From positions 1-64,000 of the forward strand of contig NZ_JANFQO010000014.1 of assembly GCF_024437735.1 (NCBI RefSeq): 64,000 bases of DNA, given 5' to 3'. A program made the position numbers and the translations under genes. Under the pieces are notes generated by a model that saw only the letters and a program-made list of their open reading frames with translations, made no database searches and had not been told where the DNA came from. The DNA comes from Tahibacter harae. GTDB lineage: Bacteria; Pseudomonadota; Gammaproteobacteria; Xanthomonadales; Rhodanobacteraceae. Shown in pieces: positions 1,196 to 58,739 of this stretch (position 1 is its first letter; each line of letters starts with the position of its first letter).

Positions 1196-4100
1196 TCAAC
1201 TCTTGCCCAGGCGCTTGACCAACATATCCAGACTGGTCCGCACCGTACGCACCTGTTCCCACATGTCATGGTCCAGCGTCATCTTGTGATGCAGTGCGGA
1301 GACCAGGGGCAACAGGGTTTCCTCGTAGGCCTTGGCCATGCGCGCCAGCGTCTCGTTCAGTGCCGGCGGCATTTCCAGGCGCGGCTCGCGCTGCAGGCTG
1401 GTCTGGATATCGGCCAGGCTGCGCAGGGCCTCCAGCGCGCCCAGCGCGTCGCCCAGGCCCTGGCTGTGGGCGCCCTGTTTTTCCAGCTGCACGGCGATCT
1501 CGGCCAGGGTCTGCGCCATGCGCGTGGCGCCGTCGGCGTCCTTGCCCCCCTGCTTGGCAAGGCGGCGGAAGTTTTCCACTAGTTCGTTCCACCGCGCCTG
1601 CTCGGCAGCATCCGGCGCGCCGATCAGCTGCGACAGCTTGAGCAGGTTTTCTTCGGCGCGGGCGCCCAGGGTCTGGGCTTCGCCGCGGTAATGGTCGCGG
1701 ATCAGCGAATCGAGTTCCGCGGGCGTCAGCAGTGGGCTGAGCTGGGCGGCAAGCTTGACCATGTTGCGATAGCTGCCCTGCAGCTTGAACGGCGGTTCGC
1801 TGCGGTAGGCGTCGTCCTGGGCGGCACTGGCGACATAGGCGGCGTTGACGCGCATCAGCACGTCGCGCACGCCGACCATGCGGCGCACCAGCTCCAGCAT
1901 TTCCAGGCCGCCGGGCAGTTCGGCCGGGATTTCTTCCTCGCCGCCACGCGCGGCACGCAGCACGGCCTGAATTTCCGTGCGCGGCCGCTCGGCCAGCGGC
2001 GCGCTGAGCGGGTTGGCGGTCAGCGCGTTCTCGATGTAACTGTCGGCGAACAGCGCCTCGCGCCCGCTCAGCACATCGCCGAGGTTGTAGACATCGGCAC
2101 GGTTGGCCAGCATGTCGGGAATGCGGAACACCTCGCCGGATTCGGTATACGGATTGCCCGCCATCACCAGGGCGAAGCGCTTGCCGCGCAGATCCAGCGT
2201 GCGCGCCTCGCCGTCGATCACGGCATCGATGCGCCGGGTACCGTCGGCCAGGCTGATGAACTTCTGCAGGAACTCGGCCGAGAGGTGCTGGATGTCGTCC
2301 AGGTACAGCATCACGTTCACGCCCATGGCGAGACCGAGGTTGAGCTTGACCAGTTCCTCCGCCGCGCCGCGCTGGCTCACGCTGGCCGGATCCAGCGAAT
2401 TGACCTCGTGGCCCAGGGTCGGCCCGTTCACGCGCACGAAGATCATGCCGAGGCGGTCGGCGATGTATTCCATCAGCGTGGTCTTGCCGTAGCCCGGCGG
2501 CGAGATCAGCAGCAGCAGGCCGGAACGGTCGCTGCGCGCGTCGCCGACGCTGCCGATCTGCTTGGCCAGGTTGTTGCCGATCAGCGGCAGGTAGACCTCG
2601 TCGATCAGGCGGTTGCGCACGAAGCCGGCCATGGGCTTGGCCAGGAAGCGGTCCAGGCCCAGGCGGCGGCGTTCGTCCTCGACCAGGCCGTGGCGCAGGC
2701 GGGCAAAATCGTGCCAGGCGCGCTCGCCGTTTTCCGCGTGCGCGGCGAGGCGGGAGAGGAACTCGGGCAGGTCCAGCCGCAGCACGCCATCGCGCAGGCG
2801 CGCATGGGCGCCGCGCAGGCCGCTCACGTCCACCGCCAGTTCGGCATTGATGCGTTCGCGCGGCAGATCGGCGAAAGCGAGGATGGCGCCGGCTTCCAGC
2901 GCCACGTCGGGCTGCTCCGGCGCCAGGCGCGCGCACCACTGGCGTGCCAGGTCCAGGCGCTCGGCGGCGGAGAGTTCGGACTGCAATGCGGCCAGCGCGC
3001 TGCGCGGCAGTTCGCTGCCCGCACGCGCCGCCAGATCCAGCGCAGCGGAATGCGCGGCGAACTGGGCGCGCTCGCCGCCGAGGCTGGCAACCAGGTGCCG
3101 CGCCGCCGTCTGCGCCTGCGCTTCGCTGGCGGCGAAGCCCAGTTGCTGCGCGCAGCTCTGCAGGCCGCTCAGCCAGCTCGCCGGCAGCGGTACGGCTTCC
3201 TCGCGCTGCAGGAACCAGTGCAAGCCGGCGGCGTGCGCGCGCAGCGCGGCCTGGGCCTGTTCGCGCTGCGCCGCGTACCAGGCCTGGGCCAGCACGCGCG
3301 CCGCAGCGGGCTGGCGCAGTTCGCCCGCAGCCACGGACAGGCGCGCGAGTTCGCGCAGGATGGCGGCGGCGTCCACATCGTGCACGCCGCGCTGGTAATC
3401 CTCGCTGGGACGGCGCTGGGCTTCGGCCGCGACAGCATCGATGAGCACCTGCGCATCGGCGGCGCGCAGCGCGTCACGCAGGGCTGCATCGCCGGCTTCG
3501 ATGCGGCGCCACAGTAGCGCGGCAAGGAATTCGGCGCGGTAGATCTGCGCGGTTTCGTTGGGCAGCGGCTGGCCCCAGACGCTGCGGTAATTTTCGGCGC
3601 GCGCGTCCTGCACGCGGCGGCGGTAGTCGGTACCGGTGAGCTGCAGCGCAAGGCCGTCGCTGTCGTGCAGCAGGGCCAGATCCAGCGTGCCGCGTTCGAT
3701 GCTGAAGCGATGCCGCCCCAGCGCCAGCGCGGCGCCGCTGGTGCCCAGCTCGTTGCGGTCGCGCAGATCGCGCAGGCCGGCTTCCTTCAGCGCGCGCAGG
3801 CGGCCGGCCAGTTCGTCGGCGGCCACGGCCTGGCCTATGCCGCGCAATTCCTCCAGCTGGCGCTGGGCGCGTTCGATCAGGGTGTCGCCGGCGAAGAAGG
3901 CGTGCAGCTCCTCGGCCACGCCGATCTTGGCCACGCGCCGCGGCACGCCGTCGAGCACGCGGCCTATGGCTTCCTTCAGCGCCTGGGCGCGCTTGTCGCG
4001 CTGGCCGGCGATCTGCTCGCGCCGCGCGGCAAAGGCTTCCAGCGCGCTTTCCCGGCGCGAGGTGAGTTCGACCAGGAAATCCGGCTGCTCGCCGAAGCGC

Positions 4101-6274
4101 GCTTCCAGCTGTTCGATCTGGCTCAGCACCTGGGCCAGGCCGGCATCGGCGCTTTCCGGCGTGTCGCAGCGGCCGAGCAGGTTGAGCACGGACTGCTCCA
4201 GCACCGTGAGCTGGGCGCCGAACTCCAGGCCCTGTTCCTGCACCAGCAAGGTTTCGCGGCGCGCGCGCAAGGCGGCGCGGATGCGGTTGACCTCGGCGTA
4301 GAGCTGCGAGGTTTCGCCGAGCAGCGCGGCGCGCTGCTGCGCGTCGCTCTGCTCGAAACCGGCGATCAGTTCGGACAGGCCATCCAGCGATTCGGCCAGC
4401 GCATCGAGCTTCTCCGCCACCGGCGCCAGCGCCGCGGTGGTGCGCGCATCGTTGACCGCCGCGGCACTGTCGGCCAGACCCTGGCGCAGCGTGGCGAAGG
4501 CGGCCGGGTCGGCGAAGAATTTCAGCGCACGCGCGCCGATGCGCTCCAGTTCCTCGCGCAGGCGCGCATCCAGCGCGGCGATGGCGGCGCCGTCCACATG
4601 CGGCTGTTCGCCCATCACGGTGAGTTCGCCGCGCTTGCGCTTGAGTTGGCGGATGGCGTCGGTGAAATCGTCGGGCTTCTGCCACAGCAGGCTGGCCACG
4701 CGCGAGAGCAGCTCGGCCACGGTCTTGCCGGCGGCGGCGACCAGCTGGGCCGCTTCGTTCTGCGCGCGCTCCAGTTTCTCGTAGGCGTTCAGCGCCTCGC
4801 GGCCGCTGCGCGCCAGCGTCGCGACTTCGCTGCCGATATCGCCGACTTCGGCCTCGCCCAGCCAGGGATAGGCGTCGCTGCAGCGCGCCGCCACGCGCAG
4901 CAGGCGCTCGTAGGCGCCGCGGCTGCCGGTGTCCTCGGCCAGGCGGCGCAGTTCGCGCAGTTCGGCCAGGGCGCGCACCACGGTCGCATTGCCCAGGCGG
5001 CCGAGCAGGCCGGCCACGCGCGGCTGTGCGCTGGCGTATTCCTCGAACGCGAACGGCGTGCGCCACAGCTGCATGGTGTGCAGGCGCGAGGCCTGGTCCG
5101 GCGCTTCAGGCGTAATCAGCAGCACGCGGCCGTCGGCAAAGCGCGCGTAGCCGTTGCCCAATAGCGGCTGGCTCATGCTGCGTTCGATCAGGTTGTAGGA
5201 CAGCAGCGCATAGCTGCCGCCGACCGGCTCGTAGAACACGTACAGCATGTCCTCGCCGCTGGGCGCGCGCAGATGGCGCTTGATGCGGTAGCCGGAGAAA
5301 TCATGGCCCAGTTCGGCGAAGCGCTTGAAGTCGCCGGATTCCAGGTAGTAGCCGCCCGGGAAAACCAGGCCATGGTCTTCCGGCAGCTGCAGGCAGGAGG
5401 CGCCGATCTCGTCGATGCGCACCACCGACTTGAGCCGCTTGTTGAACACCAGGTAGCGCGTGGTGTCCTCGCGGTACGGCTTCACGCGCAGCAGGATCAG
5501 GCTGCGCAGGTCGGCGTAGGCGACTTCCGCGTCAGCCAGCGACTGGTTCCTGTCCTCGACCGGCTCGCTGTAGATGCCCAGCCCGGTCTCGGTATTGTTT
5601 TCCACCTTTATCGTCAAATCGCCGGCGACGGTCTCGACGAAGACGCTGTCCAGCACGTTGATGTGCGGATGCCGTCCCAGCACATACTGCTCGCGCGTTA
5701 CCGGCGTCCATTCGAAATCGTGGCTGGGCGGCAGCACGTGCTCGCGGTCGCCGCGGTTGTCGATGTAGCTGACCTTGCCGTCGCGCTCGATGGCGAAGCG
5801 GAACACGCGCTTGTCGCCGGCCTGGGAGCCGGTGCGGAACACCAGCAGCAGGCGCTCGTCCAGCACGCGCAGCTGGTCCAGCGTGGTGGCGCGGTAATAG
5901 GTGAACAGTTCGCGGAAATCCGCCGCGAAGCGCGCATCGGCAAGGAAGGAGCCTTCCAGCGGCAGCGGCACCAGTTCCTGCCCTTCCGCGCCCTCGTCCA
6001 GGCGGTAAAGGCAGAACACGTCGCCGACCGCAGTTTCCTTCTTCAGTCCGATGAACACGTTGTAGCCGAACAGCAGCACCTCGCCGACGCGCACGATATC
6101 GCGCGCGACGCAGTTGTTTTCGGTGCGTGCGGCCAGGCGCGCTGCCAGGCGCGATTCGACCCGGCCGAAGGCCTCCACGCGCCGGGCGTTGAGCGCCTCG
6201 GCCTTGCCGTGCAGGGTCTCGGCCGCGGCGACCAGGCGCTTGCGCAGCAGTTCAAAGGTGGCGGAATCGGACAT
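1196..6274 (-). CDS. Giant (~1692 aa) protein with a MoxR/McrB-type AAA+ ATPase core; last gene of the flotillin operon; function unknown
   Basis: Long ORF 1196..6376, start trimmed to the ATG at 6272-6274 (MSDSATFELLRK...) with an AAGGGA RBS. Walker A LLLISPPGYGKTTLMEY, Walker B MLYLDDIQH and a sensor-1-like VMAGNPYTE are in the C-proximal third. A long A/L/R/E-rich helical region precedes them. The N-terminal ~450 aa has ordinary composition and no recognised domain. Confidence 0.8.
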   Translation of the reverse strand: MSDSATFELLRKRLVAAAETLHGKAEALNARRVEAFGRVESRLAARLAARTENNCVARDIVRVGEVLLFGYNVFIGLKKETAVGDVFCLYRLDEGAEGQELVPLPLEGSFLADARFAADFRELFTYYRATTLDQLRVLDERLLLVFRTGSQAGDKRVFRFAIERDGKVSYIDNRGDREHVLPPSHDFEWTPVTREQYVLGRHPHINVLDSVFVETVAGDLTIKVENNTETGLGIYSEPVEDRNQSLADAEVAYADLRSLILLRVKPYREDTTRYLVFNKRLKSVVRIDEIGASCLQLPEDHGLVFPGGYYLESGDFKRFAELGHDFSGYRIKRHLRAPSGEDMLYVFYEPVGGSYALLSYNLIERSMSQPLLGNGYARFADGRVLLITPEAPDQASRLHTMQLWRTPFAFEEYASAQPRVAGLLGRLGNATVVRALAELRELRRLAEDTGSRGAYERLLRVAARCSDAYPWLGEAEVGDIGSEVATLARSGREALNAYEKLERAQNEAAQLVAAAGKTVAELLSRVASLLWQKPDDFTDAIRQLKRKRGELTVMGEQPHVDGAAIAALDARLREELERIGARALKFFADPAAFATLRQGLADSAAAVNDARTTAALAPVAEKLDALAESLDGLSELIAGFEQSDAQQRAALLGETSQLYAEVNRIRAALRARRETLLVQEQGLEFGAQLTVLEQSVLNLLGRCDTPESADAGLAQVLSQIEQLEARFGEQPDFLVELTSRRESALEAFAARREQIAGQRDKRAQALKEAIGRVLDGVPRRVAKIGVAEELHAFFAGDTLIERAQRQLEELRGIGQAVAADELAGRLRALKEAGLRDLRDRNELGTSGAALALGRHRFSIERGTLDLALLHDSDGLALQLTGTDYRRRVQDARAENYRSVWGQPLPNETAQIYRAEFLAALLWRRIEAGDAALRDALRAADAQVLIDAVAAEAQRRPSEDYQRGVHDVDAAAILRELARLSVAAGELRQPAAARVLAQAWYAAQREQAQAALRAHAAGLHWFLQREEAVPLPASWLSGLQSCAQQLGFAASEAQAQTAARHLVASLGGERAQFAAHSAALDLAARAGSELPRSALAALQSELSAAERLDLARQWCARLAPEQPDVALEAGAILAFADLPRERINAELAVDVSGLRGAHARLRDGVLRLDLPEFLSRLAAHAENGERAWHDFARLRHGLVEDERRRLGLDRFLAKPMAGFVRNRLIDEVYLPLIGNNLAKQIGSVGDARSDRSGLLLLISPPGYGKTTLMEYIADRLGMIFVRVNGPTLGHEVNSLDPASVSQRGAAEELVKLNLGLAMGVNVMLYLDDIQHLSAEFLQKFISLADGTRRIDAVIDGEARTLDLRGKRFALVMAGNPYTESGEVFRIPDMLANRADVYNLGDVLSGREALFADSYIENALTANPLSAPLAERPRTEIQAVLRAARGGEEEIPAELPGGLEMLELVRRMVGVRDVLMRVNAAYVASAAQDDAYRSEPPFKLQGSYRNMVKLAAQLSPLLTPAELDSLIRDHYRGEAQTLGARAEENLLKLSQLIGAPDAAEQARWNELVENFRRLAKQGGKDADGATRMAQTLAEIAVQLEKQGAHSQGLGDALGALEALRSLADIQTSLQREPRLEMPPALNETLARMAKAYEETLLPLVSALHHKMTLDHDMWEQVRTVRTSLDMLVKRLGKS

Positions 6275-6463
6275 GGCTATCCCTTGCTGGGCTGCGGCTT
6301 TCGCGGCGGTGGTTGCGCGGCGAAGGCCGGCGGGAAACAGCATCTGGCCGGAACCGCGCCGCCCGGGCGCCGGCACCTGCGGCGCGCGGCCGCGGGGCTT
6401 CCGGCATTCCCGTCACGGCCGCGCGCCGGCGCAGACCTCAGCGTTGCGCGGCAGCGGCGCCGT

Positions 6464-8518
6464 TCACGCGCCGTCGCCGCTCAGGCGCTTGAGCGTCTCC
6501 ACGTCGCCGTGGCGTCCGGAGGCGGTGAGCTTCTGCATCAGCCCGGCGATGGAAAGATCGCGCACCGCATCGGCGCCGCCCAGCGCGGCGATCAGCTCAC
6601 GCGCATCGGCGATCAGGTCGCGCTTGCCGGCCTTGTGCTCGGCCAGGGCGGTGCTGAGCAGGTCGCTCTTGTCGACGGTGCCGTCGATGGCCTTGCCCAG
6701 GCTCAGGCTGCGCATGAAGCGCTCGAAGTATTCGCCGTCGCCGCCGACAATCTCGATCTTGGCCGCACCCAGCGCCTTGGACAGCACTTCGGCCTGCTCG
6801 CGCGCGATGGCCTGGTTGGCCTCGATGCTCTTGAGGCGCTGCGCGTGCGCGTAGTCCAGCTGCATGCGCTGTTCCTCGTGGGCGCGCGTGTCGGCGCTCA
6901 TCGCCTGCATGGCTTCAAACTTGTCCTTGAGGCCGCCGGCTTCGGCCGCGAAGCGCGCGGCGATCGCCGCGGCTTCGGCTTCGCCGTACTTGAGCTTGCC
7001 GCTGGCTTCGGCTTCCAGCTTCAGGCGCAGCGCCTCGGCCGTGGCCGCGCCCTGCTTGGAGATGGCGTCGGCCTCGGCGATCTGCACCTTGGCCGAGACC
7101 ATGCCGGCCTTCTCGTCCGCATCGGCCTTGGCCAGGGCGACCTTGGCGGCGGCCAGTCCGCTCGCGGCGGCCAGCGCCTCCACGCCTTCGGCTTCGCGCT
7201 TCTTGCCTTCGGCGGTCTTGCTGGCGATGGCCAGGCGCGCCTCGGCCATGGTGAGTTCCTCGGACGCCTTGTGCTTGGCGCGCTGCTCGTCGGCCAGCGC
7301 GGTCTTCACTTCGGTGATGAACTTTTCTTCCGCCTGGCCTTCGGCCAGCACGATGGTGCTCTTCTTGGTGCGCTCGGCCTCGGACAGGGTGCGCAGGTTC
7401 TTGATCTCTTCTTCCTGCTCGGCCACGGTGCGCTCGACCACGATGCGCTCGCGGATCACGTCGGCGATGGCCTTCTTCTGCACTTCGACGGCTTTTTCCT
7501 TTTCTATGCGCTGCAGCGTGACTTCGCGCTCGCGGTCGACCACTTCCAGCTCGCGCGCGCGGGTGACTTTCTCTTCCTCGATGGCGACGGCGCGCTGGCG
7601 GTTCTTCTCCGCCACCTCGGCCTCGCGCTTCATGTTCTCGGTCTGCACCGCGATCTGCTGTTCGGCCAGCAGGCGCGCCGCCTCGGCCTTGGCGCGCTCT
7701 TCGGAGGCGACCTTGGCCGCCTCGGCTTCCTCACGCGCGCGGGTGATGGCGATTTCGCGCTGCTGGTTGGCTTCGGCATGGGCCTTCTGCCGTTCCAGCT
7801 CCAGCACGGCCTCGGCCGTCTCCACGTCCTTCTTCTTGATGCGCATTTCCTCGTTGCGGCGCAGCTCGTTGGTGAACACGTTCTGCTCGGCGGTGAGCTC
7901 GGTGATCTTCTTGATGCCCTGGGCGTCGAGGATGTTGTGCGGATCGAGCTTTTCCAGCGGAGTCTGCTCAAGGTAGTCGATGGCGGCATCCTCCAGCACA
8001 TAGCCCGAGAGTTCATCGCCGATCTGGCGCACGATCTGGTCGCGGAAGCGGTCGCGCGCCTCGTACAGGTCGACGAAGTCCATGGCCTTGCCCACGGTCT
8101 TGAGCGCTTCGGAGAACTTGGCGCTGAACAGGTCTTCCAGCGTGGCCTGGTTGCTGGCGCGCTCGCAGCCTATGCCCTGGGCCACGCGCAGCACGTCCTC
8201 GCGGGTCTTGTTGACGCGCACGAAGAATTTCACCTTGATGTCGGCGCGCATGTTGTCCTTGCAGATCAGGCCTTCCTTGCCCATGCGCTCGATCTCGATG
8301 GTCTTGAGCGAAATATCCATCACCTCGCGCCGGTGCAGCACCGGAATGACCAGGCGGCCGGTGAAGGTCACTTCCGGCTCGGCGCGCATGGTGTTGACGA
8401 TCATGGCGCGGCCCTGGTCGACCTTTTGATAGAACTTGGCCACGACGGCCATCAGGGCGAGCACGGCGAGGGCGACGAGCACGACGACGACGATCAGCGT
8501 GGTGACTGTGATATCCAT
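6464..8518 (-). CDS. Flotillin / SPFH (band 7) domain protein, YqiK-like
   Basis: ATG at 8516-8518. N-terminal TM helix (TLIVVVVLVALAVLALMAVV), an SPFH domain, then a very long E/A/K/R-rich coiled coil and a flotillin-type C-terminus. Sits directly downstream of an NfeD-like gene, as yqiJ-yqiK does in E. coli. Confidence 0.9.
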   Translation of the reverse strand: MDITVTTLIVVVVLVALAVLALMAVVAKFYQKVDQGRAMIVNTMRAEPEVTFTGRLVIPVLHRREVMDISLKTIEIERMGKEGLICKDNMRADIKVKFFVRVNKTREDVLRVAQGIGCERASNQATLEDLFSAKFSEALKTVGKAMDFVDLYEARDRFRDQIVRQIGDELSGYVLEDAAIDYLEQTPLEKLDPHNILDAQGIKKITELTAEQNVFTNELRRNEEMRIKKKDVETAEAVLELERQKAHAEANQQREIAITRAREEAEAAKVASEERAKAEAARLLAEQQIAVQTENMKREAEVAEKNRQRAVAIEEEKVTRARELEVVDREREVTLQRIEKEKAVEVQKKAIADVIRERIVVERTVAEQEEEIKNLRTLSEAERTKKSTIVLAEGQAEEKFITEVKTALADEQRAKHKASEELTMAEARLAIASKTAEGKKREAEGVEALAAASGLAAAKVALAKADADEKAGMVSAKVQIAEADAISKQGAATAEALRLKLEAEASGKLKYGEAEAAAIAARFAAEAGGLKDKFEAMQAMSADTRAHEEQRMQLDYAHAQRLKSIEANQAIAREQAEVLSKALGAAKIEIVGGDGEYFERFMRSLSLGKAIDGTVDKSDLLSTALAEHKAGKRDLIADARELIAALGGADAVRDLSIAGLMQKLTASGRHGDVETLKRLSGDGA

Positions 8519-22471: not shown

Positions 22472-22476
22472 ATACC

Positions 22477-22510
22477 GCGGCGGCGCGTGCAAGGCGCGCC
22501 GCCGTTTCTC
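22477..22510 (+). terminator. Rho-independent terminator after the CoA-transferase gene
   Basis: CGCGGCGGCGCG tgcaag GCGCGCCGCCG followed by TTTCTC. Confidence 0.5.
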
Positions 22511-22756: not shown

Positions 22757-23248
22757 ATGCCCCATGACCAGATAGCAAAACCGGCCGCGGGCCGGTACTT
22801 CCCGTTCAGCGCCGGCGAACTCGCCCGCCAAGCGGCCGGTTTTTCCACGCATGCCTACAGCCCGGCGCCGCCGCGCATCGACCTGCAGCTCAAGAACTGC
22901 ACCGTCGAATGCCGCCACGGCCATCAGCTCTGCACCTTCCTGCGCCGCAGCTATCTCGCGGCATTTTCGCTGCCGGAAACCGTGCCGGCCGGCCTCGCAC
23001 GCCAGGCCGTGGAAGCCGCGCTGCAGCACTTCGCGACCATCGACAGCGGCCCGTATCCCGCGCTGCGGCAGCAGCAGCGCGTGGCCTATCGCGCCTTCCT
23101 CGGCCCGGTGGGAAAACTCTGCGTGACGGAACACCGCTTCAATGCGCAGGACATCCCCTGGCTCAGCACCGACCGCGTGGTGATGCTCTCGGCACGCCAG
23201 CGCGAATGCAGGGACCAGCGCGTGCTGTTGCAGCTCCAGCTCTGCTGA
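22757..23248 (+). CDS. Hypothetical 163-aa protein immediately upstream of the STM4015-4011-like cluster
   Basis: ATG at 22757 with a GGAG 8 nt upstream. Several Cys and His residues (CTVECRHGHQLC). Same strand as the cluster, 92 bp upstream of it. No family recognised. Confidence 0.4.
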   Translation: MPHDQIAKPAAGRYFPFSAGELARQAAGFSTHAYSPAPPRIDLQLKNCTVECRHGHQLCTFLRRSYLAAFSLPETVPAGLARQAVEAALQHFATIDSGPYPALRQQQRVAYRAFLGPVGKLCVTEHRFNAQDIPWLSTDRVVMLSARQRECRDQRVLLQLQLC

Positions 23249-23339
23249 ACCCGCTGAACGGACCGGCGGGCGCGGCGCTGACTGCGCCCGCCCGCCACCC
23301 GCTACACTCGCCCAACGCCTCTACAGGACCGGAGCCCCA

Positions 23340-24251
23340 ATGACCGTCGGCAGTTACCTGGATACCTTCTTCGGCAAGCCCGTGCACAACTACAGCTACG
23401 GCGACCGCGTCAGCCGGCACGACGTGGTCTACCGTCTGTGCCAGGAATACGAGGCCGAGGAGACCCAGGTACAGTTGCTGGACGAGTTCCTGGGCCAGGT
23501 GACGCCGGCGACCTTGCAGGCGCTGGTGGTGGGCTCCTGGTCCGAGGCCTACGAAACCGGCCCGCAGAAACTGCTCGACCGCCTGGTCGAACGCCATCAG
23601 GAACTGCCCGAATTCAAGGCGCTGTTCGTCGGCGACATGACTTCCGAGGACTGCGAGATTTCCTGGATCCACCAGGGCGACTACGAAGACCTGCTGCAGA
23701 AATTCCGCACCCTGGAAGTGCTGCGCCTGCGCGGCAGCGAAAACCTGGAACTGCCGGCCTTCGAGCACCACGGCCTGCGCGAACTGGCGATCGAGTGCGG
23801 CGGACTGCCCACGGCCCTGGTGCGCAATCTGCAGCGTTCGATACTGCCGGCGCTGCGTCATCTGGAGCTGTGGCTGGGCGACGACAACTACGGCTTCGAC
23901 GGCAAGCTGGACGACTACGCCCAGCTGCTGGAGAAGATACGCCCCGAGCGCCTGCGCTACCTGGGCCTGCGCAACGCGCAGATCAGCGACGAGCTGGCCA
24001 TCCACATCGCGCGCCAGCCCTGGCTGAGCAGCCTGCATACGCTGGACCTGTCCATGGGCACGATAGGCGACAAGGGCGCACGGGCGCTGATCGACAGCCC
24101 CTATATCGCCGGCCTCAAGGTGCTGGACCTGCAGCACCACTACATCTCCGACGAACTCGTGGCCGCGCTGCGCAAGCTGCCGCTGCAGCTGCGCATCGAC
24201 AAGGCGCAGGAAGAAGATGACGGCGACCGCTACGTCGAAGTCGCCGAGTGA
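23340..24251 (+). CDS. Leucine-rich-repeat (RNI-like) protein; recalled as STM4015 family
   Basis: GGAG then ATG at 23340. The C-terminal half has ribonuclease-inhibitor-type LRRs (LRYLGLRNAQISDELAIHIARQPWLSSLHTLDLSMGTIGDKGARALIDSPYIAGLKVLDLQHHYISDELVAAL). Confidence 0.7.
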   Translation: MTVGSYLDTFFGKPVHNYSYGDRVSRHDVVYRLCQEYEAEETQVQLLDEFLGQVTPATLQALVVGSWSEAYETGPQKLLDRLVERHQELPEFKALFVGDMTSEDCEISWIHQGDYEDLLQKFRTLEVLRLRGSENLELPAFEHHGLRELAIECGGLPTALVRNLQRSILPALRHLELWLGDDNYGFDGKLDDYAQLLEKIRPERLRYLGLRNAQISDELAIHIARQPWLSSLHTLDLSMGTIGDKGARALIDSPYIAGLKVLDLQHHYISDELVAALRKLPLQLRIDKAQEEDDGDRYVEVAE

Positions 24252-25350
24252 GATCCTGCTGCTGGGCCATGCCGCGTCGCGGCGGACCCGGCTGCTGCAG
24301 CAGGCCTGCGCAAGGCGCGGACTGGGCGTGGACGTACTGGGCTGGAACGCATTCATTGCCGCGCCGCAACGGCTGGCGCAACAGCTGCACGAGCGGCGGT
24401 ACCGCTGGCTCAAGATCGACTCGCCGGGCGAGGACGCCGATTGCGCCCTCGCCCTGCGCCGCCTCGGCTGGCGGTTGGACGGCGCGGCCGGTGCGCCGCC
24501 GCTGCCGCTGCTGCACGGCGAACAGGCCGCGCAGCCGCAGTGGTACGCCGGCCTGAATGCCCTGCTGGACGAAGTCGACGCCGCGCTGCGCGCCGTCGCG
24601 GCGCCGCCGCGGCTGCTCAACGGCACGGCCGGGATACGCCGCATGGTGGATAAATTTTACTGTCAACAAATCCTATCAGCCCACGCGACCGTGCCGCGGC
24701 AACTCGGCCTGGTGCAGTCGCTGCAGCAGTTCGAGGCGGACTGGCCCGCGCGCGACTGCCCGCGCGTGTTCATCAAGCCGCGATACGGCTCTTCCGCCGC
24801 CGGCGTGATCGCGCTGCAGCGCCATACGGACGGCCGCCTCAGCGCCATCAGCCCGGCCCGCCTCGATGCCCGCGGCCGCCTGTTCAACCATCTGCGCCTG
24901 CGGCGCTATACGGCACGCGCGGAAGTCGGCGCACTGGTCGATGCCGTCGCCGGCCAGGGTGCGTATGCGGAGTGCTGGGTGCACAAGCCGCGGGCACCGG
25001 CGCCGCATCAAGGTCACTACGACCTGCGCGTGGTCGCCCATGCCGGCCGGGCGCGGCAGCGCGTCGCGCGCCTGGCGAGCGGTCCTCTGACCAATCTGCA
25101 CCTGGGCAATGCGCGTGCCCTGCCCGACTGGCTGGACAGCGCAACGACGGCTGCGCTGGAGCAGCAGGTCGCCGCCGCGGCCGCGGCATTCGCCGACTGC
25201 CACAGCATAGGCTTCGACCTGATCGCCGGCCGCCGCGGCATCCACGTGCTCGAAGCCAACTGCTTCGGCGACCTGCTGCCCGGATTGAGCCACGCCGGAC
25301 AGGAAACCTATGACGACCAGGCCGAACTGATGCGCCGCGATGTCCACTGA
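24217..25350 (+). CDS. ATP-grasp family protein; recalled as STM4014 family
   Basis: AGGAAGAAG RBS then ATG at 24217, overlapping the upstream gene by 35 nt. ATP-grasp hallmarks (VFIKPRYGSSAAGVIAL, HVLEANCFGDLLPG). Confidence 0.7.
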   Translation: MTATATSKSPSEILLLGHAASRRTRLLQQACARRGLGVDVLGWNAFIAAPQRLAQQLHERRYRWLKIDSPGEDADCALALRRLGWRLDGAAGAPPLPLLHGEQAAQPQWYAGLNALLDEVDAALRAVAAPPRLLNGTAGIRRMVDKFYCQQILSAHATVPRQLGLVQSLQQFEADWPARDCPRVFIKPRYGSSAAGVIALQRHTDGRLSAISPARLDARGRLFNHLRLRRYTARAEVGALVDAVAGQGAYAECWVHKPRAPAPHQGHYDLRVVAHAGRARQRVARLASGPLTNLHLGNARALPDWLDSATTAALEQQVAAAAAAFADCHSIGFDLIAGRRGIHVLEANCFGDLLPGLSHAGQETYDDQAELMRRDVH

Positions 25351-26164
25351 AATTCCCGACATGAACACCTTCGCCGGCAGCCACGACCTGGTGCTGGTCA
25401 CCCTGGACACCTTGCGCTACGACGTGGCCCAGGCGCAGTGGCGCGCCGGCGCGCTGCCGCATCTGGCGCAGTACATGGGTGAAGACGGCTGGGAGCTGCG
25501 CCACACGCCGGCCAGCTTCACCTATGCCGCGCATTGCGCCTTCTTCGCCGGCTTCCTGCCCACGCCGGCGACGCCCGGCCCGCATCCGCGCCTGTTCTGC
25601 CTGCGCTTTCCCGGCAGCGAGACCACGCACGCGCACAGTCTCGTCTTCGACGCAGCGGACAACATCGTGCAGGGCTTGGCCCAGCGCGGCTATCACACGC
25701 TGTGCCTGGGCGGCGTCGGCTTCTTCAATCCGCACACGCCGCTGGGCCGGCAACTGCCCGGCCTGTTCGCCGAAAGCCACTGGCGGCCGGAGTTCGGCGT
25801 CACCGCGCCCGACTGCACCGAGCACCAGGTCGCCCTGGCCTGCGCGCGCCTGGCTGCGCCGGAGCTGAGCCAGCGCCGGGTGTTTCTTTTCATCAACGTG
25901 GCGGCGCTGCACCAGCCCAACCGGCATTACCTCGACGGCGCGAGCGAGGACAGTCTGGACAGCCACGCCGCGGCGCTGCGCCATGTCGATGCCGCGTTGG
26001 CGCCGTTGTGGAAAATGCTGGAACAGCGCGGCCCGGCCTTCGTCATCGTCTGCTCCGACCACGGCACGGCCTACGGCGAGGACGGCTGGCACGGCCACCG
26101 CCACGCCCATCCCAGCGTGATGCAGGTGCCCTATACCCAGTTCCGGATCGGCGCACATGACTGA
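25340..26164 (+). CDS. Alkaline-phosphatase-superfamily (sulfatase/phosphoesterase-like) hydrolase; recalled as STM4013/SEN3800 family
   Basis: ATG at 25340 overlapping the upstream stop by 11 nt. N-terminal metal-binding motif LVLVTLDTLRYD. A later VIVCSDHGTAYGEDGWHGHRH motif is typical of AP-superfamily metal ligands. Confidence 0.7.
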   Translation: MSTEIPDMNTFAGSHDLVLVTLDTLRYDVAQAQWRAGALPHLAQYMGEDGWELRHTPASFTYAAHCAFFAGFLPTPATPGPHPRLFCLRFPGSETTHAHSLVFDAADNIVQGLAQRGYHTLCLGGVGFFNPHTPLGRQLPGLFAESHWRPEFGVTAPDCTEHQVALACARLAAPELSQRRVFLFINVAALHQPNRHYLDGASEDSLDSHAAALRHVDAALAPLWKMLEQRGPAFVIVCSDHGTAYGEDGWHGHRHAHPSVMQVPYTQFRIGAHD

Positions 26165-27488
26165 CCTGCCCGCCCGCCTGCGCGCCGCGCCCTACCAGGC
26201 CTACAGCTACTCCTATCCGCACAAGTCGGCCTATCGCGAGCTGGCCCAGCCGGTGGATCTCGCCCGACTATGGCAGCAGGAAGACCGCAGCGCGTTGTTC
26301 GGCTACATCCACATTCCCTTCTGCACCTACCGCTGCGGCTTCTGCAATCTGTTCGCGCTGGGGCAGCCGGGTGCCGGCCTCGTCAACGGCTACCTCAACC
26401 AGTTGCTGCGCCAGCTGCGCGTGGTCGGCGCACTGCTGGGCGAGCGCCGCTTCGCGCGCTTCGCCATCGGCGGCGGCACGCCCACCTATCTGGACGCGGA
26501 TCAGCTGGCCCGCCTGTTCGAGGCCGTGCAGACCCATCTGGTGCCCGAGCTGGTGCAGATTCCCAGCGGCATCGAGGTCAGCCCCGAAACCGCCACGCGC
26601 GAGCGCCTGCAGCACTGCCGCGCCGCCGGCGTGGATCGCGTGAGCATGGGCGTGCAGAGCTTCGTCGATGCGGAACTCGGCGCCCTGGTGCGGCCGGCGC
26701 AGACAACTGCCGTACTGCAAGCCGTCGATACCGTGCGCACCCTGGATTTCCCTACGCTGAACCTGGATCTGATCTACGGCATACCCGGCCAGACCCCGGG
26801 CAGCTTCGCCGCCTCGCTGCAAACCCTGCTCGCACTGCAGCCGGAAGAAATCTACCTGTACCCGCTGTACGTGCGCGAACGCACCGGCCTCGGGCGCATG
26901 CAGCGCAAACTGTCCGCAAACGCGGACGATCCGCGCCGCGCCCTGTACGAACTCGGCCGCGACACCCTGTGCGCCGCGGGCTATGTCCAGGTCTCCATGC
27001 GCCTGTTCCGCGCCGCGCATGCGCCGGAAAGCGGCGGCCCGGCGTATTGCTGCCAGGACGACGGCATGATCGGCCTGGGCTGCGGCGCACGCTCGTATAC
27101 GCGCGGCCTGCACTACTCGGATCACTACGCGGTCGAGCGCGCCGGCGTCAGCGCCATCCTGCGCGACTACATCGCCCAGCCGGAAGAAGCCTTCGCCAGC
27201 GCGCGCTACGGCTTCGTACTGGATGCGCAAGAACAGCGCCGGCGCTATCTGATCCAATCCCTGCTGACCTGGCCCGGCCTGGATACCGCGGCTTTCGCCG
27301 CGCGTTTCGGCTGCGCCGCGCGCGACTGCTTCGGCGAACTCGACGAACTGCTGCAGGCCGGCCTGGCCGAAACCCGCGGCGAATTGATCGCGTTGACCGC
27401 ACTGGGCATGGCCCATGCCGACGCCATAGGCCCCTGGCTCAATTCCAGCGCCGTACGGGCGCGCCTGGACGGCCATGCGGCGGCTTGA
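26157..27488 (+). CDS. Radical SAM protein, HemN/HemW-like (coproporphyrinogen-oxidase / class C methyltransferase fold); recalled as STM4012 family
   Basis: ATG at 26157 with an 8-nt overlap. CxxxCxxC cluster motif CTYRCGFC preceded by YIHIPF, a GGGTP SAM-binding motif and a HemN_C-like C-terminal domain. Confidence 0.85.
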   Translation: MTDLPARLRAAPYQAYSYSYPHKSAYRELAQPVDLARLWQQEDRSALFGYIHIPFCTYRCGFCNLFALGQPGAGLVNGYLNQLLRQLRVVGALLGERRFARFAIGGGTPTYLDADQLARLFEAVQTHLVPELVQIPSGIEVSPETATRERLQHCRAAGVDRVSMGVQSFVDAELGALVRPAQTTAVLQAVDTVRTLDFPTLNLDLIYGIPGQTPGSFAASLQTLLALQPEEIYLYPLYVRERTGLGRMQRKLSANADDPRRALYELGRDTLCAAGYVQVSMRLFRAAHAPESGGPAYCCQDDGMIGLGCGARSYTRGLHYSDHYAVERAGVSAILRDYIAQPEEAFASARYGFVLDAQEQRRRYLIQSLLTWPGLDTAAFAARFGCAARDCFGELDELLQAGLAETRGELIALTALGMAHADAIGPWLNSSAVRARLDGHAAA

Positions 27489-28365
27489 GTCCGATACGCT
27501 GCGCCTGCTCTACCGCGGCCGCCTGGCCAGCTGCAACTACGACTGCGGCTATTGCCCCTTCGCCAAGCGCCGCGACAGCCGCGCGCACTTGCAGCAGGAT
27601 GCGGCGGAACTGCAGCGCTTCGTGGACTGGTGCCTGCAGGCGCCGGAAACCCTCGCCCTGCTGTTCACGCCCTGGGGCGAGGCGCTGGTGCGGCGCCACT
27701 ACATGCAGGCGCTGGTCACGCTCAGCCATGCGCGCAACGTGCGCCGCGTCGCGATCCAGACCAATCTCAGCGGCAACCTGCATTGGCTGGAAAGGGCGAA
27801 TCCCGCGACGCTGGCGCTGTGGTGCACCTTCCATCCCTCGCAGACGACGCAGGCCGCCTTCCTGCAGCGGCTGCGGCGCCTGCGCGGCTACGGCATACGC
27901 CACAGCGTGGGCACGGTGGGCCGGCGCGAAGACATCGCCGCCATCGCCGCGCTGCGCCGCGCCCTGCCCGACGGTGTATACCTGTGGATCAATGCCTTCG
28001 ATCCGCGCCCCGACGATTACTACAGCGCCGCGCAGGTCCGCGAACTCAGCGCCATAGACCCGCATTTCGCCTACAGCCTGCAACCCCGCCCCAGCCTGGG
28101 CGCCGACTGCCGCGCCGGCGACAGCGCATTGTCGGTGGACGGCTACGGCGACGTACGCCCCTGCCATTTCATCGCCGCGCCGCTGGGCAATCTCTACGAC
28201 GGCAGTTTCCGCGCCCGCCGCGCCGCGCGGCCCTGCCCCAATCCACGCTGCGACTGCTATATCGGCTACATGCATCGGCGCGACATAGGCCACGAGCGCC
28301 AGTTCGACCAGGGCGTACTGGAACGGGTGATGGACGGCTGGCCGGCGCCGCACGACGCCGGCTAG
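27475..28365 (+). CDS. Radical SAM protein (second, small); recalled as STM4011 family
   Basis: ATG at 27475 with a 14-nt overlap. N-terminal CNYDCGYC (CxxxCxxC). Extra C-terminal Cys cluster CPNPRCDCYIGY, possibly an auxiliary cluster. Confidence 0.8.
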   Translation: MRRLESDTLRLLYRGRLASCNYDCGYCPFAKRRDSRAHLQQDAAELQRFVDWCLQAPETLALLFTPWGEALVRRHYMQALVTLSHARNVRRVAIQTNLSGNLHWLERANPATLALWCTFHPSQTTQAAFLQRLRRLRGYGIRHSVGTVGRREDIAAIAALRRALPDGVYLWINAFDPRPDDYYSAAQVRELSAIDPHFAYSLQPRPSLGADCRAGDSALSVDGYGDVRPCHFIAAPLGNLYDGSFRARRAARPCPNPRCDCYIGYMHRRDIGHERQFDQGVLERVMDGWPAPHDAG

Positions 28366-40213: not shown

Positions 40214-40513
40214 GTTGTGAAGCTCCTGGTTGTGCATCGTCCCCAAGGCCTGGGACGCATCCGCAGCGCGCAGCGTCGCAGTCCTGCGCCAGGGCTTTCC
40301 CCGTACCGTCGCTCCGCCGGCTGCCCCGGCATCACGGCCGGGCCCGCCAGCCCGACATATCGCTCCATCCGGAATCAGCGATATAATCCGCGCCCTCCTC
40401 GCCGCCGAGGGGCGCTGCAAGTCCGGTCGCGGGTCCACGCGAACACGGAATCAGGCTCGGCGGAATCGGGTTCCATTCCGACACCGCGCCCGCCCAAAGC
40501 ACTGGAGTTCACC

Positions 40514-50089: not shown

Positions 50090-53000
50090 TCAGAAGCAAG
50101 GCGCGGTACCGGTGGTATACGAGGTAAACGAGTTCGTCGTCGCCGTCGGCTGGGCGTTGGTGTTCGCACCGTTGAGGTAGTTCACTACGTCCGTGATGGT
50201 GCCCGTGCCGCCAAGATTGCGCAGGCGGAAGTTGGCGAGCGGCGCCGTGCCCGTCTCGGCCGGGTTGATGCGCATGCGCATGTTGCCGGCCGCGACACTG
50301 CCGTCCCAGGTGCCGGCGATGTTGTTGCCCTGGATATCGGCGCACAACTGGCTGGAATCGCCGTCGTCGTTGCCCGACTGCACGAACACGGCGTGGCCGA
50401 CGCGCGTGCCGGCCGGAACCGGCGGATCGGGCGAAAGGAACTGGTTGTTCGTGATCACGACCCCGATGGTGTCGTTCAGCTGGCTGATCACCTCCACGGC
50501 GCGCTGGCGGATGTGCTGGACCGTGTTGTTGGAGATGGTCATGCGCATGTCGCCGCCGGTACCTTCGTTGGTGACCGAGACGCCGTTGCAGCCTGCGCAG
50601 TTGTTGCCGCTGTCGACGGCGGCTCCGCCGATCGTGTTGTTGCTGAACGTGCCCACGAACAGCCCCGTCGCGCCCGTGCCCTTGCGGAAGGTCACCGGTG
50701 TATTGCCCGAGGTTACCGTGCCGCTCACCGTGATGGTGTTGTTCTGCGCGGTGGCGTTCATCGTTGCCGCGTTGTCAGTCAGGAACTGGAGGGCCAGCGA
50801 GTTATCGGTGAACGTGTTCGCCACCGTCGTACCGACGTTGAACGTCATGTTCGCATTGCCGATGCCCTGGGCCGTCAGCGCCGTACCGAAGTTGCGGCGG
50901 AAGGTCGAACCGTTGATCGCGGTCGTCATCTGCGAAGTGCCATGGCCGGCGATCAGCACGCCCTGTGCCGCCGTGGAAGTGTAGATGCCGCGGTCGAAGG
51001 TGGAGTTGGTGATCGCCATGGTCAGCGCGCTGGTCGCATTCGGGTTCTGCACCTCGAACTGGCGGTGGTAGTTGCCCGTGAACGACGAGTTGCTGATGTT
51101 GACCGTGCCGCGCAGGTTGACGAACTGCACGCCATCTTCGAGGTTTTCGTCGCCGACATTCGCCACCGTCACGTCGTCCATGGTCAGGCCGTTGACGTCG
51201 TTGCCGTTGATGCCCATCTGCGTGCCGCCGGAGACATCGACGTTGCTCAGGGCGACGGCGCTGGTGGCCACCATGTGGATGGCGGCGCCGCAATTGGTGT
51301 TGGTGCCGCCGAATGCGTTGCCGCAGGTCGCCGCGCCGTCCTGGTTGGTGCCGTTGCCGGTGAAGCCCATGTTCGACAGGGTCAGGCTCTTCAGGCCGTT
51401 GGTCGACACACCGCGCGCAGTCTTGTTGTTGATCGTGCCGCCGGAGTTGGTGGTCGTGCCCACGCCGGTGATGGTCAGGCCGCCGTTGCCCGCGCCGGTG
51501 CCGGTATTGACCAGCGAAATGCCGTTCGCACCGGTGCCGTTGTTGGTGATGCTGCGGAAGGTCAGGCCGCCGGAACCGATCTGCGTGGTGTTGACGTTGA
51601 GCGAGGTGCCGGTACCGGTGGTGCTGATGGTGTTGACGATCGCGCCCCCCGCCGTGACGGTCAGGGTGCCGCCGCCGGTCGCGTCGATGCCATCGCCGCT
51701 GGCCGAGGTGATGGTCAGGCCGCCGGAGAAGTTCACCGTGCCGCTGGTCTGGTGGCGCACGCCGTCGCCAAGCGTGGTGGTGAGGCCGACGGCACCGCTG
51801 AAGTTCATCGTGCTCGCGCCGTTCGTGCTGAGATCGATCGCGTTGGCCGCGGCCGAACTCAGCGTGATCGCACCCGTGTAGCTCTGCGTGCCGCCGGTGT
51901 TGTTGCTCAGGCGGATGCCGGTGCCGGTGTTGTTCTTGCTGATGGTGCCGGCGTAGGTGAAGGTCGGCGAGGACGAGTCGATGCGGATGGCTTCGTTGGT
52001 CGGGTTGGTGATGGCCGAGCCGGTATTGGAGAAGTTGATCGTGCCGGCCGAATTGGTGGTGATGTCGATGCCGGCGTCGCCGCCGTTCAGGGTCACCACG
52101 CCGCTCGCCGTGAAGTTGCTGTCCACGTTGCTGAGGTTGATGCCGGTGCCGTTGGTGGCGCTCAGCGCTCCGCTCAGCGTGATGTTGCCGCTGGCCTTGT
52201 TCTGCACGTCGATCAGCAGGCCCGCGCTGGTCTTGCTCATGCTGCCGGCATAGGTGACCGCAACCGTGCCGCCGCTGACGTTGAAGCTGGTGCCGGTGGC
52301 GCCGGACAGCGCGCCCGTGCCCAGGTCGACCGTGCCGTTGACCGTGGTCAGCGAGACATTGTTGGCGCCGCCGCTTGAACTCAGCGCAGCCACGATGGAA
52401 CCGGCGGCGAAGGTGCCGTTGGTGAGGTTCAGCGCCTGGCCGTTGGTGTTGATGCGCACGTCGTCGTACACGGTCAGCGTGCCGAAGCCGGTGCCGGCGA
52501 TGGCTCCGCCGGTGACGTTGCCGATCTGCACGCCGCGCACCGTGTTGTTGCTGCCCAGGGTGATGCCGTTGCCGGCGGCATTGGTAATGACGGGCGGCGT
52601 CTGGTCGACCAGCGGACGCGCAATCGAATAGCTCGGCGGCGTGATGCCCAGTTCGGCGTCGAAGTCGTTCACCGTGGCCGCATCCAGGCCGTGGCCGGCC
52701 AGCTCCACGCCGTTGGCCAGCGTGATGCCGGTGGTGTAGTTGCCCGAGAACACGAAGATCTTGTCGCCGCTGCTGGTCGCCACGGTCGCCGCCGCGCTCA
52801 GCGTCTGCAGCGGCTGCAGCAGCGTGCCGTCGCGCGTGCCGATCACGACCGCATCGTCATCGACGAAGAAGATGCGCGGGCCGCTCACGGTCAGGCTGAC
52901 GGTGATGTTCGCGCTGCAGGCCACCGGCGAGCCGTCGTCGCAGATGGTGTACTGGAAGGTGTCGGTGCCGGTGAAGCCGGACGGCGGGTTGTAGGTGTAC

Positions 53001-58432: not shown

Positions 58433-58739
58433 AAACCCATCCCCTTGCAAACTGATTGCGGGCGGCCGTTGCACGCCCGACTTCCCTTGCCGACCAACGG
58501 GTTGCTGCTTGCCGGCGGCGCACTCCCCACGCCTGCCGGATTCCCCCTCATTGGCCCGCAAATCACTGTGTTGCGCTCTATGCTAAACCAAGGACGTGAA
58601 CATTTGTCTCGTTTGTGAGAAGTTTCTCCAAACGCCACGGCCGTTTAGCTTCGTGAAACCGCTCCATCCGGCTATGCGCTAGGCAAAGCCGGCCCTCGCC
58701 GCTAGGCTCTCGGGATTTCGCCCGCCCGGAATCCTCGCC

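Follow-up and report, generated by a model that had tools for sequence, protein, structure and literature searches.

Five consecutive genes on the + strand of Tahibacter harae contig NZ_JANFQO010000014.1 form a compact and tightly coupled unit within the stretch of 64,000 nt analyzed here (positions 1 to 64,000 of the contig, hereafter the window). They encode, in order, a leucine-rich repeat (LRR) protein, an ATP-grasp protein, an alkaline-phosphatase-superfamily protein and two radical S-adenosylmethionine (SAM) enzymes, assigned to the families STM4015, STM4014, STM4013/SEN3800, STM4012 and STM4011 (Table 1). All five open reading frames (ORFs) described in an earlier note on this DNA were recovered, each overlapping the previous one (by 35, 11, 8 and 14 nt along the cluster); their starts were taken as the first start codon after a stop and are identical to those picked by a gene caller in a ~90%-identical metagenome contig. 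The earlier note placed the cluster start at 22757, which is the first position of a separate 163-aa ORF; the unit of five genes runs from 23340 to 28365. G+C content at third codon positions lies between 0.84 and 0.89 in all six ORFs (the genome has ~68% GC), which supports the 163-aa ORF and the five cluster genes as coding. Both the start codon of the ATP-grasp gene (24217) and its AGGAAGAAG Shine-Dalgarno-like stretch fall inside the sequence that codes for the STM4015 tail. The metal-site and radical SAM motifs quoted previously are all present in the translations: DTLRYD at residue 23 of STM4013, CTYRCGFC at residue 56 of STM4012, and CNYDCGYC at residue 20 and CPNPRCDCY at residue 254 of STM4011.

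A hidden Markov model search bore out the family names that the earlier note had given, every protein exceeding its curated NCBIfam cut-off: STM4015 scored 312.6 bits against NF038076 (cut-off 275), STM4014 271.8 against NF038074 (175), STM4013/SEN3800 381.8 against NF038075 (250), STM4012 553.1 against NF006067 (380) and STM4011 367.1 against NF038073 (200). Pfam domains are consistent with these names, namely LRR_6 (ribonuclease-inhibitor type) in STM4015, Sulfatase/Phosphodiest in STM4013, Radical_SAM plus HemN_C in STM4012, and Radical_SAM plus a sub-threshold SPASM in STM4011. The five families are already catalogued in NCBIfam, as hypothetical proteins, and this locus is an ordinary member. 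No published function for STM4011-STM4015 was found in the literature, as the earlier note had supposed: searches on the gene names, on the tail sequences and on the accessory domain DUF6745 gave nothing functional, the genes occurring merely as table entries. The C-terminal tail of STM4015 is without earlier description in the literature searched.

Table 1. Features of the window and of related loci (L numbers) referred to in the text.
Feature	Sequence	Position	Strand	Remarks
STM4015-family LRR protein, 303 aa	window	23340-24251	+	NF038076, Pfam LRR_6; proposed substrate or carrier
Coding sequence of the STM4015 tail QEEDDGD-RYVEVAE-COOH (residues 290-303)	window	24207-24248	+	R297, Y298, terminal E303
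STM4014-family ATP-grasp protein, 377 aa	window	24217-25350	+	NF038074; proposed ligase on the STM4015 terminal Glu
STM4013/SEN3800-family alkaline-phosphatase-superfamily protein, 274 aa	window	25340-26164	+	NF038075; Thr61 at nucleophile position
STM4012-family HemN-like radical SAM protein, 443 aa	window	26157-27488	+	NF006067; CTYRCGFC, HemN_C
STM4011-family radical SAM protein, 296 aa	window	27475-28365	+	NF038073; CNYDCGYC at 20-27, twitch/SPASM-like C-terminus
163-aa Cys/His-containing ORF	window	22757-23248	+	separate gene upstream of the cluster
GC-rich hairpin followed by TTTCT	window	22476-22505	+	terminator-like, right behind the CoA-transferase stop codon
SAH riboswitch RF01057	window	40401-40498	+	42.2 bits, gathering score 37; unrelated to the cluster
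1,726-aa protein	window	1196-6376	-	DUF3686 ('ATPase involved in DNA repair'), DUF7902, AAA domains
684-aa ORF	window	6464-8518	-	no Pfam match; unusual AT skew (-0.33) stretch
2,823-aa repeat protein	window	50090-58561	-	Big_9, bacterial cadherin-like and Cadherin_5 repeats
Tail-bearing paralog with WGR/TIGR02996 N-terminus	L006	8114-9463	-	Myxococcus, Pyxidicoccus
Tail-bearing paralog with WGR/TIGR02996 N-terminus	L018	14444-17259	-	Myxococcus, Pyxidicoccus
Pair of ~98-aa protein and DUF6745-domain protein	L037 (example)	5223-6625		pair-bearing loci: L017, L021, L033, L034, L036-L038, L040, L044, L046, L047, L050, L069, L071, L074-L077, L080
APS-kinase-like gene	L062	70-378		Myxococcaceae contig; end overlaps the STM4013 start
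APS-kinase-like gene	L043	7400-7915		~2 kb or less from the cluster
APS-kinase-like gene	L068	5508-6053		~2 kb or less from the cluster

STM4015 consists of an N-terminal cap region, ribonuclease-inhibitor-type leucine-rich repeats, an acidic linker and a conserved C-terminal tail. The protein is acidic, with an isoelectric point (pI) of 4.89 and a net charge of -21 in the window and a median pI of 4.4 over 73 orthologs. Comparisons were made over 80 related loci from Gamma- and Betaproteobacteria, Myxococcota, Planctomycetota, Chloroflexota, Cyanobacteriota, Actinomycetota, a Clostridia metagenome-assembled genome and Fibrobacterota. The tail consensus is an acidic run followed by R-Y-[VIC]-x-[VLI]-[SGA]-E-COOH, the window copy being EEDDGD-RYVEVAE. 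Terminal glutamate is found in 73 of 74 STM4015 orthologs, the lone exception being a gene with a frameshift, after which the tail runs on in the next frame, and in 43 of the 46 in-cluster paralogs. Over 116 tails, Arg occupies position -6 in 104, Tyr position -5 in 108 (Phe in 7) and Val, Leu or Ile position -2 in 112; R297, Y298 and E303 are among the most conserved STM4015 positions outside the repeat leucine framework. Such invariance of the last residue suggests that the free C-terminus itself is recognized or reacted upon.

Divergence of the protein body leaves the tail in place. Paralogs that share one cyanobacterial locus have a mutual identity of 33-52%, and all of them retain it; the copy on a Paenibacillus plasmid also carries it and ends in EEDDWRYPSLTE, and the divergent Salmonella copy, ending in DDYDGDIYMNAMYTE, is still acidic and Glu-terminal. 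A stop-to-stop scan of six frames over the 80 loci and the window (~1.4 Mb) returned 121 frames that end in [RK][YFW]xxxxE; STM4015-family genes account for 105 of these, and a further 6 are gene remnants or the gene of the window itself. All small frames that bear the motif were remnants of LRR genes, and no conserved small precursor-peptide ORF was found in this set, which extends to all of these loci what the earlier note had reported for the window. The argument drawn there, that a missing precursor speaks against a peptide made on the ribosome and modified after translation (RiPP), holds for a classical RiPP but does not count against protein-directed chemistry.

Tail-bearing genes are also multiplied. 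Extra LRR genes lie between the enzyme genes, NCBIfam calling these paralogs STM4015-like, and in 20 of 73 loci the tail-bearing LRR genes number 2-7. Because a near-invariant tail goes together with tail-bearing paralogs that multiply inside the clusters, the LRR protein fits the enzymes' own substrate or carrier. We tentatively favor, with confidence a little short of even, a cytoplasmic system that acts on the C-terminal tail of the LRR protein, this protein being substrate or carrier and not a scaffold for another target.

The distribution of the cluster is wide. Relatives of STM4013 form more than 6,000 clusters at 90% identity in public data, and a scan of one genome per GTDB species gave at least 587 confirmed species-level genomes. 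Organisms among the matches listed include Salmonella, Xanthomonas, Stenotrophomonas, Myxococcus, Streptomyces and Nostoc, and plasmid records with cluster matches add Deinococcus, Paenibacillus, Methylobacterium, Bacteroides and Salmonella; loci and plasmid records together span at least 10 bacterial phyla. A DNA-level search of 5,426 complete Escherichia coli genomes did not find the cluster. Tahibacter aquaticus harbors the closest locus among the matches listed (79% STM4013 identity) and, as identity of 53-79% is kept over the host range across phyla (again among the matches listed), strong selection on STM4013 function is likely.

Linkage was counted on the 62 loci that have 5 kb or more of flanking sequence on either side; all five genes occur together in 61 of them. 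This is far beyond chance, and the adjacency, which the earlier note allowed might be fortuitous, is therefore not so. The Prokaryotic Genome Annotation Pipeline (PGAP) calls the same five genes in a row on Salmonella and Paenibacillus plasmids. Order and strand are as in the window in 48 of the 62 loci. Among the other 13 loci with the full set, eight have the unit split between strands, always into a 4015-4014 pair and a 4013-4012-4011 trio, each of them intact, and the other five, all cyanobacterial, keep one strand with the LRR gene moved. When the cluster splits, the STM4014 gene thus travels with the STM4015 gene.

By sequence profile and predicted fold, the nearest neighbors of STM4014 are ArgX/LysX and RimK, its score against the RimK family model TIGR00768 being 15.4 bits (cut-off 143.4). 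LysX and ArgX, acting on LysW, and RimK, acting on ribosomal protein S6, ligate amino acids onto a protein C-terminal glutamate; LysW is a small zinc-ribbon carrier (~54 aa, in general ~50-60 aa) that ends in EDWGE. As in these amino-group carrier systems, which serve lysine, arginine and secondary-metabolite biosynthesis, the putative carrier is strongly acidic, but here it is a 303-aa LRR protein ending in RYVEVAE and not a zinc ribbon. No LysZ/LysY/LysJ/LysK-type kinase, reductase, aminotransferase or deacylase was found in the cluster or among its conserved neighbors, their slot being filled by two radical SAM enzymes and an alkaline-phosphatase-superfamily protein. RimK differs further in that it acts alone on S6, without an adjoining dedicated substrate gene or a radical SAM partner. 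Of the chemical steps that we infer, the first would be the activation by STM4014 of the terminal-Glu carboxylate with ATP as an acyl phosphate, which would then be joined to an amine (an amino acid or other amino compound).

Pupylation, too, uses a terminal Glu, and the pairing of a carboxylate-amine ligase with a flexible acidic tail that ends in a conserved Glu brings Pup/PafA-like tagging to mind. The ATP-grasp enzyme would then link the LRR protein, through its terminal Glu, to lysines on other proteins, with the rest of the cluster preparing or removing the tag. We consider this very unlikely: the ligase fold is ATP-grasp and not the glutamine-synthetase-like fold of PafA, a 300-aa LRR protein would make an odd tag, it is hard to see what the two radical SAM enzymes would do, and genes for a proteasome or a depupylase-like enzyme are not linked.

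STM4011 presents five C-terminal cysteines (C212, C230, C254, C259 and C261) beyond those of CNYDCGYC, and all eight Cys are invariant in 32 sequences. The spacing C212-x12-G225-x4-C230 matches the SPASM/twitch signature CX9-15GX4C. Its sole PDB profile match is the SkfB twitch domain, in which the five Cys are aligned (full-sequence E 0.096, marginal); the Pfam SPASM score of 18.2 is sub-threshold (21.5), and weak NCBIfam matches are to HxsB maturases and a tungsten-enzyme maturase. With the SPASM/twitch maturases (SkfB, PqqE, MftC and the anaerobic sulfatase maturase) it shares CX3CX2C and a Cys-rich C-terminus. The likeness ends at the N-terminus, where the radical SAM motif starts at residue 20 and a PqqD-like domain is lacking, and the cluster has no short precursor peptide; neither a full SPASM domain (seven Cys, two auxiliary clusters) nor a PqqD-like recognition element was found in STM4011. 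The targets of MftC and PqqE are Tyr and Glu residues close to a peptide's C-terminus.

STM4012 matches HemN (PDB 1olt, E 8e-29) and the class C methyltransferase NocN (9p2u, E 4.5e-17). It shares the fold, the cluster motif and HemN_C with HemN and class C methyltransferases (ChuW/HutW, NocN/NosN), yet it belongs to an equivalog family of its own and is well under the cut-offs of HemN, HemW, HemZ and ChuW/HutW (HemW 154.2 vs 205.4, ChuW/HutW 142.7 vs 400, HemN 140.4 vs 324.95). No tetrapyrrole or thiopeptide genes were found near it. In the substrate or carrier reading, STM4011 and STM4012 would modify the tail by radical chemistry, their targets being Tyr -5, the terminal or appended residue, or both, and the HemN-like STM4012 could perform either methyl transfer or a HemN-style oxidative decarboxylation of a propionate side chain. 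The Glu side chain is a propionate, the group that HemN decarboxylates.

The same enzymes might instead make or salvage a metabolite or cofactor, for instance a derivative of a tetrapyrrole, nucleotide or amino acid. The LRR protein would then regulate, chaperone or sense, and its tail would serve in folding or partner binding and not in chemistry. Such a small-molecule pathway seems to us unlikely, as it leaves unexplained the invariant terminal Glu and the R-Y at -6/-5 in paralogs of 33-52% identity, the multiplication of LRR genes inside clusters and the persistence of the ATP-grasp gene beside the LRR gene in split clusters; the twitch domain of STM4011, moreover, resembles peptide maturases.

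STM4013 is a minimal 274-aa domain whose sequence shows no apparent signal peptide or membrane segment. Its overall fold is nearest to sulfatases. The nucleophile stretch reads T61-Y-A-A-H65. In a weakly aligned segment T61 is placed against Cys54 of choline sulfatase (7pth), a residue that is Ser in the mutant, so that Thr occupies the nucleophile position in a fold of the sulfatase/phosphoethanolamine-transferase type. Within the alkaline phosphatase superfamily, the sulfatase-like branch likewise has Thr-nucleophile members (phosphoethanolamine transferases EptA/MCR-1, LtaS/LtaP, BcsG), but they are membrane-anchored, periplasmic or extracellular and use lipid donors. A formylglycine sulfatase matured by STM4011 was ruled out, given Thr (T-Y-A-A-H) in place of C/S-x-P-x-R. 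With single sequences, PDB searches gave no match for STM4014 and STM4011 and insignificant ones for STM4013 (E 0.42), and leads for these three came from profile searches only.

STM4013 would transfer or remove a phospho-ester group, aided in some lineages by haloacid dehalogenase (HAD) or kinase genes. Clustering of the remaining ORFs within and near the 80 clusters showed a HAD-IA hydrolase gene directly upstream of STM4013 in eight loci and a Cof-type HAD-IIB hydrolase gene overlapping STM4011 in Salmonella. An adenylylsulfate (APS)-kinase-like gene overlaps STM4013 in one locus and similar genes lie close to the cluster in two others (Table 1). This sporadic coupling of HAD phosphatases, and in one locus of an APS-kinase-like gene, to the cluster suggests that a co-substrate or an intermediate is phosphorylated. 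The APS-kinase-like gene, together with the sulfatase-like STM4013 and the acidic-run-Tyr motif, also allows us to speculate that the tail may undergo tyrosine sulfation or phosphorylation.

No conserved peptidase, exporter or regulator was found among the neighbors of the 80 loci. Given the missing peptidase and exporter, the end product is more likely to stay on the protein, as a modified tail with a bound group or cofactor, than to be set free as a small molecule, though release by an unlinked protease may occur. A similar logic of building on the C-terminus of a carrier is known from the pearlins (3-thiaglutamate, 3-thiahomoleucine), in which the carrier C-terminal carboxylate is activated, an amino acid is appended and the product is tailored, including by a radical SAM enzyme (PMC9303977). 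The peptide aminoacyl-tRNA ligases (PEARLs) of these pathways are LanB-like and tRNA-dependent and not ATP-grasp, and their carriers are short peptides; pearlin clusters also encode a protease and a transporter, neither of which is conserved at STM4011-STM4015 loci. The system is likest a combination of amino-group carrier pathways, RimK and pearlins with twitch/SPASM maturases, and it lacks the defining features of each.

A bolder version of the substrate or carrier reading, possible but on the doubtful side, is that the cluster represents a new class of protein-templated chemistry, in which an ATP-grasp ligase, two radical SAM enzymes and a Thr-nucleophile phosphotransferase-like enzyme turn the universal R-Y-x-x-V-x-E tail of a folded, often multi-copy LRR protein into a protein-bound group. 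Were this true, that group might serve LRR proteins as a cofactor, cross-link or reactive handle for use on their bound partners. If the tail is a substrate at all, a folded repeat protein would become a new type of carrier or precursor in peptide and protein tailoring, one HemN-like and one twitch-domain radical SAM enzyme would perform new reactions, and the sulfatase/phosphoethanolamine-transferase-like fold would gain a cytoplasmic role. The near-invariance of the tail makes the function of these hypothetical families directly testable.

Some STM4015-like paralogs carry added N-terminal WGR or TIGR02996 domains, the tail-bearing examples being in Myxococcus and Pyxidicoccus (Table 1), and through these gains the LRR plus tail unit behaves as a combinable module. 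LRRs are binding modules, and both the diversified bodies of the paralogs and the new N-termini would fit varied targets, as expected if the LRR protein were a scaffold or adaptor that binds an external macromolecule, protein or nucleic acid, and recruits the enzymes to it as their real substrate. This we judge quite unlikely. Among the neighbors of the 80 loci there is no conserved candidate target gene for the LRR protein, and the extreme C-terminus, needless for a pure adaptor, is the most distinctive conserved feature outside the repeat framework. What stands of the scaffold suggested in the earlier note is the LRR body as a proposed docking domain, which would offer the flexible tail to each enzyme; a further macromolecular target would leave tail conservation and paralog multiplication unexplained. 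The two views are compatible if the LRR protein binds a target and works on it through its modified tail.

The accessory survey also returned a gene pair that adjoins the cluster in 19 of the 80 loci, from four phyla. One member is a ~98-aa protein (MWRHGDVLI...GH.H...HEEH...QREY.P..R.V.D) with no family match, and the other has a C-terminal DUF6745 domain, often an N-terminal LRR region, and the end ...Y.P..ET. The C-terminus is conserved in both.

A patchy and apparently horizontally transferred distribution (16 plasmid-collection records match STM4013), expanded LRR paralogs and a weak pVip match of STM4011 (E 0.005) might point to anti-phage or stress defense, the diversified LRR proteins sensing and the enzymes making a toxic or signaling product. 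None of the five proteins, however, has a significant PADLOC match, that of STM4012 to PDC-M51A in PADLOC-DB 2.0 (E 1.4e-8) being partial and covering 88 residues of the shared radical SAM core, and the neighbors in the window are metabolic and regulatory genes. Genuine phage carriage was not found, the 'phage' matches being unannotated records of 2.2 kb and 5.9 kb and a Salmonella genome contig. Lacking PADLOC support or real phage carriage, a defense system was rejected and we hold it to be barely plausible.

Several observations weigh against the tail of the LRR protein as the site of chemistry. No known carrier or precursor resembles a 300-aa LRR protein, the Tyr spacing in the Salmonella tail differs, and no RiPP recognition element, peptidase or transporter is conserved. 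Two short loci (L045 and L072) apparently hold STM4013 alone, and STM4015-like genes are found far from the enzymes in Embleya and Streptomyces cadmiisoli. The roles proposed for the two radical SAM enzymes and for STM4013 are, furthermore, argued by analogy.

The genes that flank the cluster in T. harae do not belong to it. Upstream, the 163-aa ORF represents a small unannotated family with 49 representative homologs of similar length and no match in Pfam, NCBIfam or PADLOC. It is in frame in the ~90%-identical metagenome contig, with 23 synonymous vs 27 non-synonymous codon changes (a relaxed pattern), and is a real but fast-evolving gene. The earlier note had offered it as a sixth component or substrate, but none of the 80 related loci, T. 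aquaticus included, has a homolog. On two contigs (L086 and L087) a 52%-identical homolog follows the same coenzyme A (CoA)-transferase gene with no STM cluster downstream, and more distant homologs lie among other genes on a further cluster-free contig (L090); some contigs, L090 among them, have two tandem copies. The ORF was therefore ruled out as a cluster component and, since it follows the CoA-transferase gene in relatives that lack the cluster, it is part of the upstream neighborhood. A terminator-like hairpin, read from the sequence, stands right behind the CoA-transferase stop codon (Table 1), and with it the 163-aa ORF and the cluster would be transcribed apart from the upstream gene; the promoter/terminator pattern scan was uninformative and reported no + strand terminator in the region.

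Downstream, the LytS/LytTR pair and the TonB-dependent receptor, for which the earlier note had asked about co-occurrence, are found close to the cluster in the nearest relatives alone (L001 and L083). The few other loci with similar LytS/LytTR or receptor genes show weak similarity, and both were rejected as partners, not being conserved neighbors among the 80 loci. No known RNA was found upstream of the cluster in Rfam, the sole match in the window being an S-adenosylhomocysteine (SAH) riboswitch 12 kb off (Table 1).

Elsewhere in the window, two large genes on the - strand lie close together near its start, one for a DUF3686 protein and, upstream of it, one for a 684-aa product (Table 1). 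The excursion in GC and AT skew at 50-58 kb is attributable to the gene of a 2,823-aa repeat protein, likely a giant adhesin.

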